DNA of 64,000 bases from Patescibacteria group bacterium (GCA_035510735.1 DATKGN010000004.1:7436-71435), one strand, 5' to 3'. Positions 32,396-60,649 are shown, numbered from the stretch's first letter. Numbers and translations are program-made. The notes: generated by a model from the sequence alone, not told the origin.

Positions 32396-34585
32396 ATGGA
32401 TTCTCCGTTCGTATTATTGGAAATAAGGAATTCCAGGGATTCTGAAGAAACCCCCGCAGCAATGGAACAAATATTTGCTGCATTGGGCTCGGCGGGCGGT
32501 CACGGGGGATTATTAACAAGAATTTTTGGCCCTCGTCATGCGTCAAAATATCTTAGCTTTGAGATCGTTTCCGTTAACTCGAGAATCCATTTTTTTGTCG
32601 GCCTCCCAACATACATGCAAGCGTATGTGGAAAGCCAGCTTACTGCACACTACCCGAAGCTGCTCCTCACCGCCGCTCCCGATTACGCGCCGCATTTTTT
32701 CTCTCTTCCTCATGCGGCGGCACAGCTTGTCCTCACGAACTCCTATTATTATCCGCTTAAAACGTATAAAGACGCCAAAGACCTTGACGCGATGGCAAGT
32801 CTTCTCGGGCAGCTGGCGAAATTACCGGTCGGTGAAGCGGTTGCTATACAATTTCGCGCGGAACCGGCAGGGACGGGTTGGCAACAGGCAGCTTCAGCGG
32901 TTATCGCGCGCGGGGTGCCGGATGTGACATCGATAAACGGCCGCATGAAAGCCCATCCGCACGCACGACTCATAGAGACGAAAATATCGGAAGTCGGATT
33001 CACGACAGCTATCCGGATTGTTGCGGTTGGTGCTCAGGAGGCCCGCGCAAAAGAGCTCCTTAATTCCGTTGCCGGAACGTTTGGCGTGTTTACGCTCGGA
33101 GAGGGGAATGCATTGGCTATCGCCGAACCCGCATTTTGGCAAAAGAAGAAGCTGGAGCAGGGATTTGTTGAGCGAAGCGGGCGCGTGGCCCCACGGCATC
33201 AGGTCCTCAATGCGAGCGAACTTGCCTCGCTTTGGCACCCACCAGGGCTCACGCTTTCGATGATTAAAAATATTTCCTGGGGTGCACAGCTTACCGGAGA
33301 GGCACCGGAAAATCTTCCGGTAGCCACAGATGATGAAGAAGCCAAAAAGCGGATTAATTTCTTTGCCCGGACGGAACATAAAAATCGCACCGTTACCTTC
33401 GGGGTGCAGAAAGACGATCGGCGAAAGCACGTGTATATTGTCGGGAAAACCGGAACCGGCAAATCAACCATGATCGCCAATATGGCCATTAACGATATGA
33501 AAAACGGCGAAGGAGTTGCTGTTGTCGATCCGCATGGAGACCTTTGTGATATCCTTCTTGATTATGTGCCGTCCAATAGAATTAATGATGTTGCATACCT
33601 TGATCCGTCGGACATCGAATATCCGTTTCATCTTAACCCTCTTGAAGTAAAAAATACCGCATATCGCGAGCTTGTGTCCTCCGGCATCGTCTCTATTTTT
33701 TACAAACTGTATCACCTGAGCTGGGGGCCAAGATTGGAATACATTCTTAGGAATACAATTCTGACTCTTCTTAACGTGCCCGACAGTACGCTCCTGCAGG
33801 TTCCCGAGCTTCTAACGAATGAAAATTACCGGCTGAAAGTGGTGGGTTCGATGCAGGACCGGGTGCTCAAGAATTTCTGGATCAATGAATTTGCCAAAAT
33901 GAGCCCGCAGATGCGAAGTGAAGCGGTGTCGCCGATCCTTAACAAGGTTGGTCAGTTTCTTTCCTCCCAGACCATCCGGAATATTGTCGGAAGCCCCACG
34001 TCGACGGTCGATTTAGAGGATATGATGAACGAGGGGAAAATCGTCATTGTGAATTTGTCCCAAGGGAAGCTTGGTGAGGATAGTAGCGCGCTTTTGGGCG
34101 CCATGATTATCACGAAAATGCAGCTCGCCGCGATGAACCGGGTATATGTTGCCGAAAGCGAGCGGCGCGACTTCTACCTCTACGTCGATGAGTTCCAGAA
34201 TTTTGCGACGACCTCGTTTATTAAGATTCTTTCCGAAGCCCGTAAATACCGGCTCGATCTCACACTTGCCAACCAATATATCGGTCAAATTGATGAGGAT
34301 GTGCAAAAGGCGATATTCGGGAACGCCGGATCCATCGTTTCGTTCAGTGTCGGGGCGACCGATGCGCGGATCCTCGCTAAGGAATTCGGACTTAAGTACA
34401 AAGAGGAAGAATTGGTGGGCCTTGGTAATTATGAAGTAATCTGTAAACTTTCGATTGATAATCAGACAAGTAGCCCGTTCTCCGCCCACACGCTGCCACT
34501 TCCCAAGAGTAAAAATCAGAGTAGGGAAAAAGTGATACGCTCGTCTCGAGAGAGATACACCAAAAAGATAAATTCAAAATCCTAA
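32396..34585 (+). CDS. VirD4/TraG/TrwB-like type IV coupling-protein-family ATPase (DUF87/HerA-FtsK superfamily). It has a soluble N-terminal domain and no TM helices.
   Basis: Walker A is HVYIVGKTGTGKSTMIANMAI. VVDPHGDL is present. Walker B is DFYLYVDEFQNFATTSF. The C-terminal region is LTLANQYIGQIDEDVQKAIFGNAGSIVSF. The first roughly 330 aa are unrecognised and lack TM segments. Confidence 0.65.
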   Translation: MDSPFVLLEIRNSRDSEETPAAMEQIFAALGSAGGHGGLLTRIFGPRHASKYLSFEIVSVNSRIHFFVGLPTYMQAYVESQLTAHYPKLLLTAAPDYAPHFFSLPHAAAQLVLTNSYYYPLKTYKDAKDLDAMASLLGQLAKLPVGEAVAIQFRAEPAGTGWQQAASAVIARGVPDVTSINGRMKAHPHARLIETKISEVGFTTAIRIVAVGAQEARAKELLNSVAGTFGVFTLGEGNALAIAEPAFWQKKKLEQGFVERSGRVAPRHQVLNASELASLWHPPGLTLSMIKNISWGAQLTGEAPENLPVATDDEEAKKRINFFARTEHKNRTVTFGVQKDDRRKHVYIVGKTGTGKSTMIANMAINDMKNGEGVAVVDPHGDLCDILLDYVPSNRINDVAYLDPSDIEYPFHLNPLEVKNTAYRELVSSGIVSIFYKLYHLSWGPRLEYILRNTILTLLNVPDSTLLQVPELLTNENYRLKVVGSMQDRVLKNFWINEFAKMSPQMRSEAVSPILNKVGQFLSSQTIRNIVGSPTSTVDLEDMMNEGKIVIVNLSQGKLGEDSSALLGAMIITKMQLAAMNRVYVAESERRDFYLYVDEFQNFATTSFIKILSEARKYRLDLTLANQYIGQIDEDVQKAIFGNAGSIVSFSVGATDARILAKEFGLKYKEEELVGLGNYEVICKLSIDNQTSSPFSAHTLPLPKSKNQSREKVIRSSRERYTKKINSKS

Positions 34586-34609
34586 ACACCAAATCCAAAA
34601 TAAACTCAA

Positions 34610-34987
34610 ATGGACAAAATTCAAAGCACAAAACAGTATGATCTCGAAGATCGGACGTATGAATTTGCCAAACGCTGTCGTGATTTTGTGGTAAAACTTG
34701 CCAAGACGCAACCAAACGTGGAATACGGCGGGCAACTTATTCGATCATCCGGATCTCAAGCAGCCAATTATATAGAAGCAAACGATGCTATAAGTGCAAA
34801 AGACTTTCTCCATAGGATTAAAATTTGCAGAAAAGAAAGCAAAGAGAGTAGATTATGGTTGCGATTATGCGAAGTTGGAGCAAAAAGCGAATCTCAGATA
34901 GCTCAAAAAGAGCTCATACAGGAAGCGTTTGAACTTACGCGTATTTTTGGTTCAATTGTTGAAAAACGCAAGCAGAATCACGTTTGA
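34610..34987 (+). CDS. Four-helix-bundle protein (the family historically called the 23S rRNA intervening-sequence protein; TIGR02436-like)
   Basis: MDKIQSTKQYDLEDRTYEFAKRCRDFVVKLAKTQPNVEYGGQLIRSSGSQAANYIEANDAISAKDFLHRIKICRKESKESRLWLRL is the characteristic family pattern. The gene is flanked by imperfect inverted repeats (see findings). Confidence 0.8.
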   Translation: MDKIQSTKQYDLEDRTYEFAKRCRDFVVKLAKTQPNVEYGGQLIRSSGSQAANYIEANDAISAKDFLHRIKICRKESKESRLWLRLCEVGAKSESQIAQKELIQEAFELTRIFGSIVEKRKQNHV

Positions 34988-35054
34988 ATATTTTGAATTT
35001 TGCATTTAGAGTTTTGAATTTATTTTGAATTTTGGATTTGGGATTTGGAATTTT

Positions 35055-35615
35055 ATGAAAATAGCCCTTTTAGGCGGAAGTTTTAATCCACCGCACATAG
35101 GCCATCTGTTTATAGCACGGCAGGTACTGGATTTTACCGACACGGACGAAGTGTGGTTTTTGCCCAACTACGGCCAGAGCCCGCCGAAGCCGGTGGCAAC
35201 AGCAGAGGAGCGGCTGGCGATGACAAAGGTATTGAATTTGCCCAAGACCCGCATTTCCATGATAGAAATTGACAATAAACTCGACGGTGAAACCGTGCAT
35301 ATCCTCCCGTTTTTACCGAAGGAGCACACGTTTTCATTCATTATCGGTTCCGATCAGTTGCCGACGCTTCACCTATGGCTTGATTGGGAAAAACTCATTA
35401 CAACAATACCATTCTTAGTGTTTCCCCGATACGGCTACCCGAATGAGCCGCTCTACGGCGGGATGAAGGTCATAAACCACGAGCTATTAATCGGCAGCAA
35501 TATTTCCTCGACAAAGATTAGGGACCGGGTGGGCGAAGGCTTGCCTATCGACCAGTTTGTGCCGAAGGCAGTCGCCGAATATATCGACAGCCATAGTCTT
35601 TATAAGACCACTTAA
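35055..35615 (+). CDS. nadD: Nicotinate-nucleotide adenylyltransferase NadD
   Basis: MKIALLGGSFNPPHIGHLFIARQVLDFTDTDEVWFLPN (HxGH motif) and a C-terminal ISSTKIRDRV motif. The ORF starts at 35025. The start was placed at ATG 35055. Confidence 0.9.
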   Translation: MKIALLGGSFNPPHIGHLFIARQVLDFTDTDEVWFLPNYGQSPPKPVATAEERLAMTKVLNLPKTRISMIEIDNKLDGETVHILPFLPKEHTFSFIIGSDQLPTLHLWLDWEKLITTIPFLVFPRYGYPNEPLYGGMKVINHELLIGSNISSTKIRDRVGEGLPIDQFVPKAVAEYIDSHSLYKTT

Positions 35616-35617
35616 CA

Positions 35618-35650
35618 GGTCTTGACAAAAGACCTATTAGGCGCTATCAT
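35618..35650 (+). promoter_or_regulatory. Sigma-70-like promoter with a palindromic operator upstream of phd/relE
   Basis: TTGACA (35622-35627), a 17-nt spacer, and TATCAT (35645-35650) directly abut the ATG. The -35 lies inside the palindrome AGGTCTTGACAAAAGACCT (35618-35636). Confidence 0.5.
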
Positions 35651-35896
35651 ATGCTCATGACTACGATATCCATTTCACAGCTTAAAATAAATCCATCATC
35701 TGTTATCGCTCAGGCGGTAGATTATCCTGTGGTGGTAGAAAACCGCAATAAAGTGCAGGCGTATCTTGTGGGAAAAACATTGTTTGAAAAAATTATTGCA
35801 CTTCTTGAAGAGAAAGAGGATGTGGCCGCTGTGAAAAACACTGATTTTTCTAAAGGCAGGAATTTCGATGATGTAGCCCAAGAGCTGGGGTTATGA
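35651..35896 (+). CDS. Type II antitoxin, Phd/YefM family
   Basis: 81 aa. The N-terminus is MTTISISQLKINPSSVIAQAVDYPVVVENRNKVQAYLV (Phd/YefM fold pattern), with an acidic C-terminal tail. The stop overlaps the toxin start (ATGA). The translated start is more likely ATG 35657. Confidence 0.65.
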   Translation: MLMTTISISQLKINPSSVIAQAVDYPVVVENRNKVQAYLVGKTLFEKIIALLEEKEDVAAVKNTDFSKGRNFDDVAQELGL

Positions 35897-36156
35897 ATAT
35901 TCTGATATCGCCTCGAGCGGAGAAAGAGCTCAAAAAGCTTCATAAATTTGATCAAATTGCCGTTGTTCAAAAAATACGCTCTCTTCGACTCTCAACGCCG
36001 CATGGAGAAGAACGGCTAACCGGATATCCACATATATTTCGTGTTCGCGTAGGAAATTATCGGATTGTATACCGTAAAACACGAGACGACATATATATCA
36101 TTCTCATCCGTCACCGGAAAGACGTCTATAAAAAGCTTACGGACCTGTTGGGATAG
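35893..36156 (+). CDS. Type II toxin, RelE/ParE family
   Basis: 87 aa. HIFRVRVGNYRIVYRKTRDDIYIILIRHRKDVY is the typical RelE/ParE C-terminal pattern. Confidence 0.75.
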   Translation: MNILISPRAEKELKKLHKFDQIAVVQKIRSLRLSTPHGEERLTGYPHIFRVRVGNYRIVYRKTRDDIYIILIRHRKDVYKKLTDLLG

Positions 36157-36228
36157 TTTTGACAAAACATAGCCGATTAGGTTCAGGCGTTGACGGTTGG
36201 GCTAACGCACTTTAGACTGGAATAGTGG

Positions 36229-36360
36229 TGGACAAATTATCGATTAACAATAATATTTCCTCGACAAAGATCAGGGAACGGGTGGGCCGCGGCCTCCCGA
36301 TTGACCAGTTTGTGCCGCCTGCGGTTGCGAAGTATATTCAAGAACACAAGCTTTATACAT
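36229..36360 (+). pseudogene. Orphan 3' fragment of a second nadD allele (about 44 codons, ending TAA)
   Basis: It translates as VDKLSINNNISSTKIRERVGRGLPIDQFVPPAVAKYIQEHKLYT*. This is about 75-80% nucleotide identity to nadD 35497-35615 (IGSNISSTKIRDRVGEGLPIDQFVPKAVAEYIDSHSLYKTT*). There is no 5' portion. Confidence 0.75.
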
Positions 36361-36428
36361 AAGATCGCCTGCTTGCGTGTCCGACAACCGGCGGGATACA
36401 ATAAAATAAATAGTTAAATATATTTTAT

Positions 36429-48327: not shown

Positions 48328-48428
48328 ACTCAAAGCACAAAACTCAAAATTCAAAATAAGATTAAATTTTAAAATTCAAATTTTGAATTTATTTTGGATT
48401 TTGGACTTAGGATTTTAGATTTAAATTT
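48328..48428 (+). repeat. Palindromic intergenic element, an 'empty' copy of the inverted-repeat pair that flanks the four-helix-bundle gene at 34.6-35.05 kb
   Basis: The left arm is AAACTCAAAGCACAAAACTCAAAATTCAAAATAAG. The right arm is TTTTGAATTTATTTTGGATTTTGGACTTAGGATTTTAG. The right arm is about 85% identical to 35008-35050 upstream of nadD. Its reverse complement matches 34575-34610 upstream of the four-helix-bundle gene. Confidence 0.6.
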
Positions 48429-49583: not shown

Positions 49584-49652
49584 AGCGTAGAGTTTAGAGA
49601 TTAGAGTTTAGTTTAGCTAAACTCTAATGCTCTAAGTTCTAAGTACTAAATT
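49584..49652 (+). repeat. Palindromic intergenic element between the thiolase and the DUF35 gene
   Basis: GAGCGTAGAGTTTAGAGATTAGAGTTTAGTTTAGC|GCTAAACTCTAATGCTCTAAGTTCTAAGTACTAA is an imperfect dyad centred near 49618. Confidence 0.5.
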
Positions 49653-49952
49653 ATGATTAGTCCTGTTAAAGTTTGGCGGAATCAAAAATTTGTCGCGCGC
49701 ATGGTTGCAAGACGCGGCGTCGTTGTTTCTTGGACCGTGATCCGCGTGCCCCCTGCTGACTTTGGGTATCAGGCCCCGTATCCCGTCGTCATTGTGCGGC
49801 TTGATGGTGGCGAGTCAATCGCCGCCCAGATGGTGGATTATGAGGAAAAGCACCTGGCTATCGGTCAAAAGGTCATTTCTGTCGTTCGCCGGACGATCCA
49901 AACGGAGACGGATGACGTTATCCCGTATGGGATAAAAGTCAAGCCAATATAG
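49653..49952 (+). CDS. DUF35 OB-fold/Zn-ribbon-family protein, the scaffold subunit of the thiolase-HMGCS complex
   Basis: 99 aa. RGVVVSWTVIRVPPADFGYQAPYPVVIVRLDGGESIAAQMVD is a DUF35 OB-fold pattern. It sits directly after the thiolase, as in archaea. Confidence 0.75.
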   Translation: MISPVKVWRNQKFVARMVARRGVVVSWTVIRVPPADFGYQAPYPVVIVRLDGGESIAAQMVDYEEKHLAIGQKVISVVRRTIQTETDDVIPYGIKVKPI

Positions 49953-59713: not shown

Positions 59714-60157
59714 ATGAATATCAAAAACACCAAAGTCGGCTATGAATATGAAATTCTGGAGCGCTTTGAAGCGGGCGTAGTTTTGACGGGCGCTGAGGTA
59801 AAATCCTTGAAAGGTGGCCATGCAACGCTTGACGGCGCATTCGTGCGGATTATCGGGTCCGAGGCATATCTTGTGAATGCACAGGTTTTCCCGTTTATCT
59901 ACGCACGGCCTGAAGGGTACGACCCAAGGCGCACGAGGAAACTTTTGATGCATAAAAAGGAACTACTGAGCGTAAAAAGTAAGACGGACGGCGCTAATTT
60001 GACCCTTATACCCCTCTCTTGGTATACTAAAGGCCCCCTAGTGAAGCTTGAGATCGCTCTCGCGCGCGGGAAAAAGCAATACGAGAAGCGTGAAACGAAG
60101 CGGAAGCGCGACCAACGGCGGGAATTAGAGAGGGAGTTTCGGGGGAAAGTGAAATAA
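59714..60157 (+). CDS. smpB: SsrA-binding protein SmpB
   Basis: VLTGAEVKSLKGGHATLDGAFV...KLLMHKKEL, and a basic C-terminal tail. Confidence 0.92.
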   Translation: MNIKNTKVGYEYEILERFEAGVVLTGAEVKSLKGGHATLDGAFVRIIGSEAYLVNAQVFPFIYARPEGYDPRRTRKLLMHKKELLSVKSKTDGANLTLIPLSWYTKGPLVKLEIALARGKKQYEKRETKRKRDQRRELEREFRGKVK

Positions 60158-60248
60158 TAATCGAATAATAGAATAACCTAATAAACGAATGATTTTCATT
60201 AGATTATTGGATTATTCATGTATTGAAATTCGATTCGTTTATTTATTA

Positions 60249-60649
60249 TGGGGATGAATGATTCGACGGGAGTGGCACATTAAAAACTGCAAGCCGGCGA
60301 TGATAAAAGAGCCGCAAAACATTATCAAACAATAATTGCTGAGACTAAACTTAGCGAGTTGGACGAGCGGGCGCTTTATGCGATTGCTTTCCAACGACAT
60401 CAGGCAGGAATTGCGTTAGCACTGAATGCTTAATGTCCGTCCATACATTCTTTCTTCCGGTGAAGGTGTGTGGGCGTAAAAACAGCCGGAACGTCAGGGA
60501 TCAATTGACCGCTTGATTCCGGAGCAATTTGGTCAACCCTTTCCGGCCTATTTTGTCCGTTTCGACGGTCGGGAAGAATTAAATGGACTACGCTTGTAGA
60601 TGTTTTTAGGTTTCACTTTCGGACCCGGGTTCATTGCCCGGCATCTCCA
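60249..60649 (+). ncRNA. ssrA: tmRNA (ssrA), immediately downstream of smpB
   Basis: The 5' end GGGGATGAATGATTCGACGGGAGTGGC matches the conserved tmRNA 5' tRNA-like half (GGGG..GAUUCGACGGG). The 3' end has a T-arm CCGGGTTCATTGCCCGG, then CATCTCC pairing with the 5' GGGGATG (with a G3:U wobble as in tRNA-Ala), then discriminator A at about 60649. An internal reading frame ends ...GIALALNA-TAA at about 60420-60422 (tag candidate). The ORF-track ORF 60600..60782 overlaps the 3' end. Confidence 0.7.

Follow-up and report, generated by a model that had tools for sequence, protein, structure and literature searches.

A heptad-armed four-helix-bundle gene cassette, akin to ribosomal RNA intervening sequences, at protein-gene stop/start junctions in Patescibacteria

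The locus and its cassette

A 64,000-nucleotide (nt) stretch of DNA from a Patescibacteria group bacterium (GCA_035510735.1, DATKGN010000004.1:7436-71435; the whole stretch is here termed the window, and positions are counted from its first letter) contains, at 34610..34987, a gene for a four-helix-bundle (4HB) protein of the S23p/intervening sequence (IVS)-protein family, set between inverted arrays of 7-nt repeats. The resulting unit, of ~490 bp, comprises the gene and two imperfect inverted arms of ~70 nt, each an array of such heptads, and it fills the entire gap between the stop codon of the gene before it and the start codon of the gene after it. By their Pfam matches the upstream host gene (32396..34585) specifies a DUF8128/DUF87/TrwB-like ATPase of the type IV secretion coupling type (below, the TraG-like ATPase) and the downstream one (35055..35615, CTP_transf_like) is nadD, for nicotinate-nucleotide adenylyltransferase. 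All three genes are on the + strand, the unit thus being co-oriented with nadD.

The family assignment, already made from the sequence alone, holds. The product has 125 amino acids and matches both PF05635 (23S_rRNA_IVP; E 1.2e-8, 35.6 bits against a cut-off of 33.8) and TIGR02436 (E 6.9e-16, 58.4 bits against a cut-off of 24), and a profile of 4HB relatives (A1) matches PDB 2RLD, a solved four-helix bundle, over residues 7-120 (E 7.6e-14). The profile search gave no match of this protein to the Avd model, and the window has no other 4HB gene. In the loaded element, i.e. the one carrying the gene, neither a sigma-70-type promoter nor an intrinsic-terminator consensus was found, and the repeat search at the window locus yielded no long direct repeats other than the arms.

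The outer left arm (34565..34609, + strand) is an A/C-rich run of 7-nt repeats ending in AAAATAAACTCAA just 5′ of the 4HB ATG; it was delimited by the inverted repeat, by an nhmmer arm model (34570-34608) and by a register-fixed alignment, A2, dealt with below. The stop and last codons of the TraG-like ATPase gene (KKINSKS*) fall within it. The repeat then passes through the ATG to about codon 9, and this inner left arm (34610..34635, + strand; detected as direct and inverted repeats, in the fold and as a duplex) consists of the start codon and the first ~9 codons, with the heptads AAAATTC, AAAGCAC and AAAACAG; its partner, 34983-35012, is just past the 4HB stop. The T/G-rich right arm (34988..35054, + strand; inverted repeat, arm model and lag-7 periodicity scan) is made of two 32-nt direct copies, the inner of which (34989-35020) holds the complement of the ATG region while the outer (35021-35052) is the complement of the outer left arm, and it stops 0-2 nt short of the nadD ATG. 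The segments 34570-34610 and 35013-35053 form an inverted repeat of 41 nt with 83% complementarity. On folding the loaded element as RNA, the arms are paired in both the minimum free energy and the centroid structures, and their predicted duplex has -42.9 kcal/mol against -21.2 for shuffles (z -5.7). The inverted repeats that a sequence-only reading had placed around the gene are therefore real, and the stem expected on folding them also emerges, as a prediction only.

Gene-less palindromes in the same window

Two further elements with heptad arms but no open reading frame (ORF) are present in the window. The one at 48328..48428 (+ strand; from repeats, the arm model, the lag-7 scan and the fold) lies between the stop codon of the HMG-CoA synthase gene (HMGCS) and the thiolase ATG, with an A/C-rich arm followed by a T/G-rich arm. 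As had been claimed, it consists of the arms back to back without cargo: its right arm is identical to that of the loaded copy at 36 of 42 positions, in keeping with the ~85% first estimated, and the reverse complement of that arm matches the left arm at 34.58 kb at 35 of 42, the local alignment score of 28 being above all of 2000 shuffles (maximum 21), so that the similarity survives a shuffled-sequence control. The other gene-less element, at 49584..49654 (+ strand; lag-7 scan and hairpin), had been missed, both of the copies first noticed being genuine. It separates the thiolase stop codon from the ATG (49655) of an OB-fold/DUF35-type gene, has its T/G-rich arm first, i.e. reversed polarity, carries heptads of the CTAA type (see below), and is predicted to form a hairpin of -31.3 kcal/mol (z -5.3).

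All three elements are placed exactly in stop/start junctions of co-directional genes. The two copies described earlier do end just 5′ of ATGAA, as had been pointed out, but that ATGAA belongs to the host genes and also starts orthologues that have no element. A 24-mer, TTTGAATTTATTTTGRATTTTGGA, is found in the window only at 35013 and 48382, with 0 expected. Scanning the whole 64 kb for lag-7 periodicity flagged the three elements only; as controls, lags 5 and 6 gave 0 segments each and lags 8 and 9 gave 1 each. Such imperfect heptad palindromes are missed by a generic inverted-repeat finder and are detected by the periodicity scan.

A 14-mer, TCAAAGCACAAAAC, also occurs only twice, at 34621 and 48330, and the match of the left arm at 48.33 kb to codons of the 4HB gene had been read as a possible deletion scar (CAAAGCACAAAAC). 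The shared 14-mer stands; the scar is ruled out by the recurrence of an AAGCAC-N heptad in the arms of 40 of 75 loci. Recent derivation of the empty copy from the loaded copy in the same genome is also unsupported, arm similarity within the genome being no greater than that between genomes. Elsewhere in the window (60151-60250), an AT-rich 'AATAA'-type palindrome-like stretch shares a 20-mer, AATAACCTAATAAACGAATG, with an intergenic insert of the mevalonate operon of another genome (L103, 3958-4056; L-numbers denote fetched loci or genomes), the predicted folds of the pair being weak (z -0.9 and -1.8).

Heptad arms across homologous loci

Homologues of the 4HB protein number ~2000, mostly of 121 amino acids, and 80 homologous loci were fetched from among them. 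The layout in nearly all is a left side of 4-5 heptads of the form A-A-(A/G)-(T/C)-x-C-N, then AAACAAATTCAA, then the ATG, with the complement after the stop. The proposal of an IVS-like architecture outside rRNA, directly 5′ of start codons and with the 4HB gene optional, is sustained by the presence of the same arms around most homologues, the arms being complementary at about 55 of 79 loci. Across the fetched loci the inverted-repeat score is 17.7, against 8.3 for shuffled and 13.2 for cross-locus comparisons, and ungapped Watson-Crick matches amount to 26.7 of 40 against 17.8 at random positions. The predicted RNA duplex averages -34.8 kcal/mol, versus -19.0 for shuffled arms, over 79 loci, in 54 of which z is below -3.

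The last base of the heptad (N) sets its type, CGAA, CTAA, CCAA or ACAA, and left and right arms agree in type. In alignment A2, which comprises 28 elements with the register set independently for each arm, 81.9% of cells are paired, against 76.1% on shuffling and 20-55% in slid registers, and the covariation score of 0.234 (versus 0.127) is exceeded by 0 of 500 shuffles. The covariation is located at heptad position 7, Watson-Crick there in 84% of cases versus 30% when permuted, and in 25 of the 28 elements at least 7 of 8 heptads agree in the letter at this position (mean 7.43, null 4.08). Heptad type is shared with the nearest protein neighbour in 56 of 77 cases, versus 26% by chance. A search for protein columns predictive of heptad type was dropped, with 22 usable sequences and phylogeny as a confounder.

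In these loci the upstream ORF stops at a median of 40 nt 5′ of the 4HB ATG, i.e. at the outer edge of the left arm, and a median of 13 nt separates the end of the right arm from the next ATG. Of 66 loci, 62 have a co-oriented downstream gene (p = 2e-5 for a baseline of 73%); for the upstream gene this is the case in 54 of 64 (same baseline, p = 0.03). Around 20 related loci Rfam models revealed no rRNA, only tRNAs, and some copies abut tRNA genes; no 4HB relative turned up on viral contigs in IMG/VR. ORF-less copies in L029, L041 and L047 retain the ATG and 2-4 codons because the repeat itself includes the start codon.

Arrays of this kind also occur on their own. In the ftsL-ftsI region of a Saprospiraceae metagenome-assembled genome (MAG; L013, 6300-6900), a solo T/G-rich heptad array after ftsL has 24 nt identical to the window right arm, and a palindrome, T/G-rich and then A/C-rich, is directly 5′ of the ftsL ATG, with no 4HB gene nearby; heptad arrays are, therefore, not confined to Patescibacteria. 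Solo (TTTTGGA)n-like tracts in unrelated MAGs also contain the window 24-mer. Within coding regions, in-frame arrays (L012 1280-1340; L103 3143-3196; L104 3148-3183) specify K/S/Q/N-rich inserts, among them a run of the (AAAATCC)n type in rpoC and one of the ACAAGCA type in the thiolase gene.

Some cassettes have additional content. A NOV_C (PD-(D/E)xK-like) ORF lies between the 4HB gene and the right arm in L090 (2127-2549), and GC-rich non-coding stretches of 380-600 nt are similarly placed in L037 (3367-3745) and L077 (3520-4130), for which Rfam returned only sub-threshold Acido-Lenti-1 matches, two of them, in inverted orientation, in L077. These genomes also harbour another family of small palindromic inserts, unrelated to the first, namely GC-rich hairpins (e.g. 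cctgcctcgccggcaggcagg); they are found inside heptad arms (L100 at ~2311-2332, and the right arms of L067 and L069), and two of them fill the HMGCS|thiolase junction of L102 (792-878).

Presence and absence at orthologous junctions

The cassette is present at the junction of the TraG-like ATPase gene and nadD in six genomes (that of the window, L100, L101, the P0007 contig, L106 and L107). In L108 and L109 the same two genes have an ATGA stop/start overlap and no cassette. L108 is the closest relative of the window among six genomes compared (nadD 80%, TraG-like ATPase 85%), and this interleaving of presence and absence requires that the cassette was either lost precisely or gained more than once at this site. 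The C-terminus of the ATPase differs accordingly, the arm-encoded KKINSKS* of occupied genomes being RIIK* or RILKQP* in unoccupied ones. At HMGCS|thiolase the junction is TAAtATG, with 1 nt between stop and start, in L103 and L105; L102 has there an unrelated 87-nt GC-hairpin insert, though its thiolase is 94% identical, and L104 a different 58-nt palindrome, with a heptad palindrome one junction upstream, between the HMG-CoA reductase gene and HMGCS. At the junction of thiolase and the OB-fold gene, stop and start overlap or abut in L103-L105. With the junctions of relatives so tight (1 nt or an ATGA overlap), the window elements are block insertions.

The 4HB ORF of the loaded copy is under strong purifying selection, dN/dS (nonsynonymous over synonymous substitution) among syntenic orthologues being 0.05-0.07, with pN 0.08-0.21 and pS 0.67-0.86. 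The 4HB copies at the nadD site co-diverge with nadD (identities of 86, 80, 74 and 68% versus 75, 78, 71 and 65%). Together these features mark the loaded copy as old, its arms having been retained despite saturated synonymous sites. The suggestion of a small selfish or mobile palindromic element can accordingly be kept in part: gain and loss are evident from the unoccupied sites and from the Nostoc plasmids described below, but 'selfish' is uncertain for the loaded copy, given its synteny across six genomes and the strong purifying selection acting on it.

The sequence following nadD in the window (35616-36362) is also variable. A PhdYefM/ParE toxin-antitoxin pair (35651-36156) is followed by a 45-amino-acid fragment (36225-36359) with 73% identity to residues 143-183 of nadD, and the region has the appearance of a cassette insertion in which the 3′ end of nadD was duplicated or replaced. 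Orthologous positions have HicAB and AAA_14 genes in L100, Phd/ParE, AbiEii and MNT/HepT in L101, and no such cargo in L106, L108 or L109.

Divergent lineages and plasmids

Heptad arms accompany divergent TIGR02436 genes of other Patescibacteria among the fetched loci as well, with heptads of their own: TAGTGAG in L043 (gene at 1309-1668; duplex z -4.4), AAAGTTN in L071 (644-1015; z -5.6), and AAATGCA/AAATTCA in L012, where the gene is between rpoB and rpoC (z -4.7).

A plasmid sample of 14 loci, 13 cyanobacterial and 1 from Gemmatimonadota, has complementary heptad arrays on both sides of the 4HB gene in 9. The plasmid cassettes are inside operons, at cas6|cas4, cas10|cmr3 and parA|parB, among conjugation genes, and between ribonucleotide reductase subunit genes, in the last case on the opposite strand. 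A comparison of Nostoc punctiforme pNPUN02 with pNsp_c of Nostoc sp. ATCC 53789 (L119/L121) provides the most clear-cut case. Their flanking genes are 91-97% identical, and two different cassettes, whose proteins are 37% identical and whose heptads are GTCAGGA and GGGAAAA, are located at separate junctions of a single operon; where the cassette is absent the junctions are TAGgttATG or TAAtttATG, i.e. 3 nt. On the cyanobacterial plasmids L111, L112 and L120, 4HB cassettes are in CRISPR-Cas operons (cas6|cas4 of type I-D and cas10|cmr3 of type III-B). These 4HB genes look like insertions and not system components, and such insertions may account for earlier reports of 23S_rRNA_IVP as a cas-neighbourhood gene. 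Pseudanabaena galeata pPg_01 (L112, 1100-1700) has direct arrays, (CTAAAAG)x14 upstream and (CCAAAAG)x9 downstream of its 4HB gene, an exception to the inverted-arm rule which argues that the arrays matter beyond stem formation.

Relation to known systems

The closest parallels are the IVSs of rRNA. In that of Coxiella burnetii 23S rRNA, which contains an S23p ORF, the ends form a 28-bp stem and GACAGAT heptads stand in tandem ahead of the ATG, with the RNase III cut at the first heptad (PMC4990558), and rRNA insertions of candidate phyla radiation (CPR)/Patescibacteria bacteria carry 23S_rRNA_IVP ORFs (PMC11270868). Like the helix-45 IVS of C. burnetii and the S23p ORF-containing IVSs of Leptospira and Brucella, the window cassette has a member of the same protein family in the loop and terminal inverted repeats that would yield a long stem. 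Tandem heptamers directly before the ORF ATG are shared with the Coxiella member, not with all IVSs; ORF-bearing and ORF-less forms, a sporadic distribution and long-suspected mobility are common to both. The differences are that the host site here is a protein-gene stop/start junction and not a 23S or 16S helix, that the window ORF is under strong purifying selection whereas decay and lack of translation have been reported for the Coxiella ORF, and that RNase III excision, demonstrated for IVSs, would apply to the window cassette by analogy.

A different type of comparison is with palindromic repeats that resemble miniature inverted-repeat transposable elements (MITEs) and are co-transcribed with genes, such as the Correia elements of Neisseria, enterobacterial ERIC/IRU sequences and Rickettsia palindromic elements. 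These, too, are short imperfect palindromes found where genes meet; they vary in presence between close relatives and are foldable in mRNA, and Rickettsia palindromic elements are in addition found in frame inside ORFs, as are the heptad arrays in rpoC and thiolase. Terminal inverted repeats and presence/absence polymorphism at orthologous sites are further likenesses of the window cassette. However, the latter has no target-site duplication or cognate transposase, carries a 4HB gene instead of a transposase gene, consists of 7-nt repeat arrays with an element-specific letter, and is inserted exactly between stop and start.

The accessory protein of diversity-generating retroelements, Avd, has a homologous fold and belongs to the same family, and NF033474 (DivGenRetAVD) gives weak sub-threshold matches to the canonical 4HB copies of L043 and L012. 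The context is nevertheless unlike that of Avd, gene tables from ~2.3 kb upstream to 8 kb downstream having no reverse transcriptase, template repeat or variable repeat. Cyanobacterial short tandemly repeated repetitive (STRR) sequences, reportedly heptanucleotide arrays described by Mazel et al. in 1990, are by their description similar to the tandem intergenic heptanucleotide arrays around the 4HB genes of cyanobacterial plasmids. To our knowledge STRR arrays have been described as repeats of no known function with no associated gene, and no paper linking them to 4HB genes was found in the literature. Identity with TIGR-Tas arrays, judged from literature descriptions, is unlikely in view of the repeat period and because a Tas gene is lacking.

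Interpretation and alternatives

Comparison of the sequences establishes a discrete cassette, gained and lost at stop/start junctions, that has gene-less relatives and a conserved protein. It is probably an insertion of the intervening-sequence type living in an operon instead of in rRNA; it is not a strict rRNA IVS, since its host site is not rRNA. On this interpretation the element would be transcribed as part of the operon, and the arms would be predicted to pair into a long imperfect stem that buries the 4HB start codon and whose base brings the upstream stop and downstream start together. RNase III may then cut the stem, as it does in rRNA IVSs, which would free a 4HB mRNA and detach the cistrons on either side from each other. 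The encoded protein would act on the heptad arms, with ORF-less copies as putative non-autonomous derivatives.

Several observations weigh against this interpretation. Heptad positions 3-5 are complementary in 32% of cases against 35% by chance, i.e. not beyond chance, and selection may consequently act on a repeated DNA motif and not on RNA base pairs. Wobble mismatches are symmetric, 96 G-U type pairs on the + strand and 99 on the - strand, and a strand-specific G-U excess, sought as evidence for an RNA stem, is thus absent. Co-transcription and RNase III cleavage are inferred by analogy. Vertical inheritance of the loaded copy in six genomes implies that any mobility is slow or ancient. No target-site duplication was apparent on comparing occupied with unoccupied junctions (the window sites and the Nostoc plasmids), and gene tables around the cassettes have no transposase or recombinase, 4HB being the only constant ORF. 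Arrays are direct or one-sided at 4 of the 14 plasmid loci and missing at 1, and the window arms are themselves of mixed heptad type, unlike those of most relatives, L032 being the other such exception. With position 7 uniform and positions 3-5 floating, the behaviour of the arms is that of a single motif arrayed twice in inverted orientation; modelled as RNA, they would also form a substantial, bubbled stem.

Those same features lend themselves to a DNA-level alternative, namely a transposon or MITE with the arms as terminal inverted repeats, the heptad arrays bound by a trans-acting transposase or recombinase, the 4HB gene a passenger and the RNA stem incidental. A letter uniform over both arms with floating positions 3-5 is more readily explained by a repeated protein-binding site than by a helix, the wobble counts are strand-symmetric, presence and absence are in blocks, ORF-less copies exist, and extra passengers are within the arms in L090 (nuclease-like), L037 and L077. 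We nevertheless consider this unlikely. Transposase genes are absent from the cassettes and their vicinity, and target-site duplications have not been seen; the 4HB gene is the one constant content and co-diverges with arm type; and strong co-orientation with the downstream gene, together with a start codon inside the repeat, points to constraint at the transcript level.

A host regulatory system, with the 4HB protein as a nucleic-acid-binding regulator, the heptad arrays as DNA or mRNA operators (including for autoregulation) and the ORF-less palindromes as regulon members, would account for the strong purifying selection on the loaded copy and its long retention in synteny, for arrays directly 5′ of start codons, for the tracking of protein clade by heptad type, and for GGA/AGGA motifs read in the T/G-rich arms near the downstream ATG. 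It appears rather improbable, since unrelated palindromes are swapped at the same junction in close relatives (the GC-hairpins of L102), the supposed targets are unrelated across loci (nadD, thiolase, rpoC, cas4, cmr3, parB), heptad arrays are also in frame within coding regions, and near-identical plasmids have different cassettes in different junctions of one operon. That there is no element at all, the similarity being one of composition among low-complexity AT-rich intergenic or slippage-prone repeats, draws on the repetitive, A/C-only or T/G-only nature of the arms and on the 24-mer in solo tracts of unrelated MAGs, but is most improbable given the zero expectation for that 24-mer, the restriction of lag-7 periodicity to three elements in 64 kb, the exceeding of all shuffle and slid-register controls, and the clean block boundaries against unoccupied sites.

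Significance

The nature and spread of rRNA IVSs, and the role of the S23p ORF, have been open questions since about 1990, and our literature search found no prior description of 4HB/IVS elements outside rRNA. A heptad letter that is uniform and clade-specific would be expected neither from a plain stem nor from slippage, and it suggests recognition by the encoded protein. A broader and tentative proposal, doubtful as it may be, is that 4HB proteins of the S23p/IVS/Avd type are sequence-specific heptad-binding factors, each lineage with its own 7-nt 'dialect' and perhaps one heptad per pentamer subunit, that act on the flanking arrays, either in mobilizing or maintaining the cassette or in processing its RNA. 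The cassettes would then be phylum-spanning autonomous insertion elements targeting stop/start junctions and rRNA helices, and ORF-less IVSs, the junction palindromes of Patescibacteria and the STRR arrays of cyanobacteria would be their non-autonomous derivatives. Heptad binding by the 4HB protein, RNase III excision from mRNA, and the origin of ORF-less IVSs and STRR arrays become testable from here.

The module of heptad arms and 4HB gene is not tied to rRNA, as is evident from its clean stop/start insertions in operons of Patescibacteria and cyanobacteria. For annotation it matters that 4HB genes within cas, par, rpoBC and secretion operons are probably insertions in these operons and not components of the systems that they encode.

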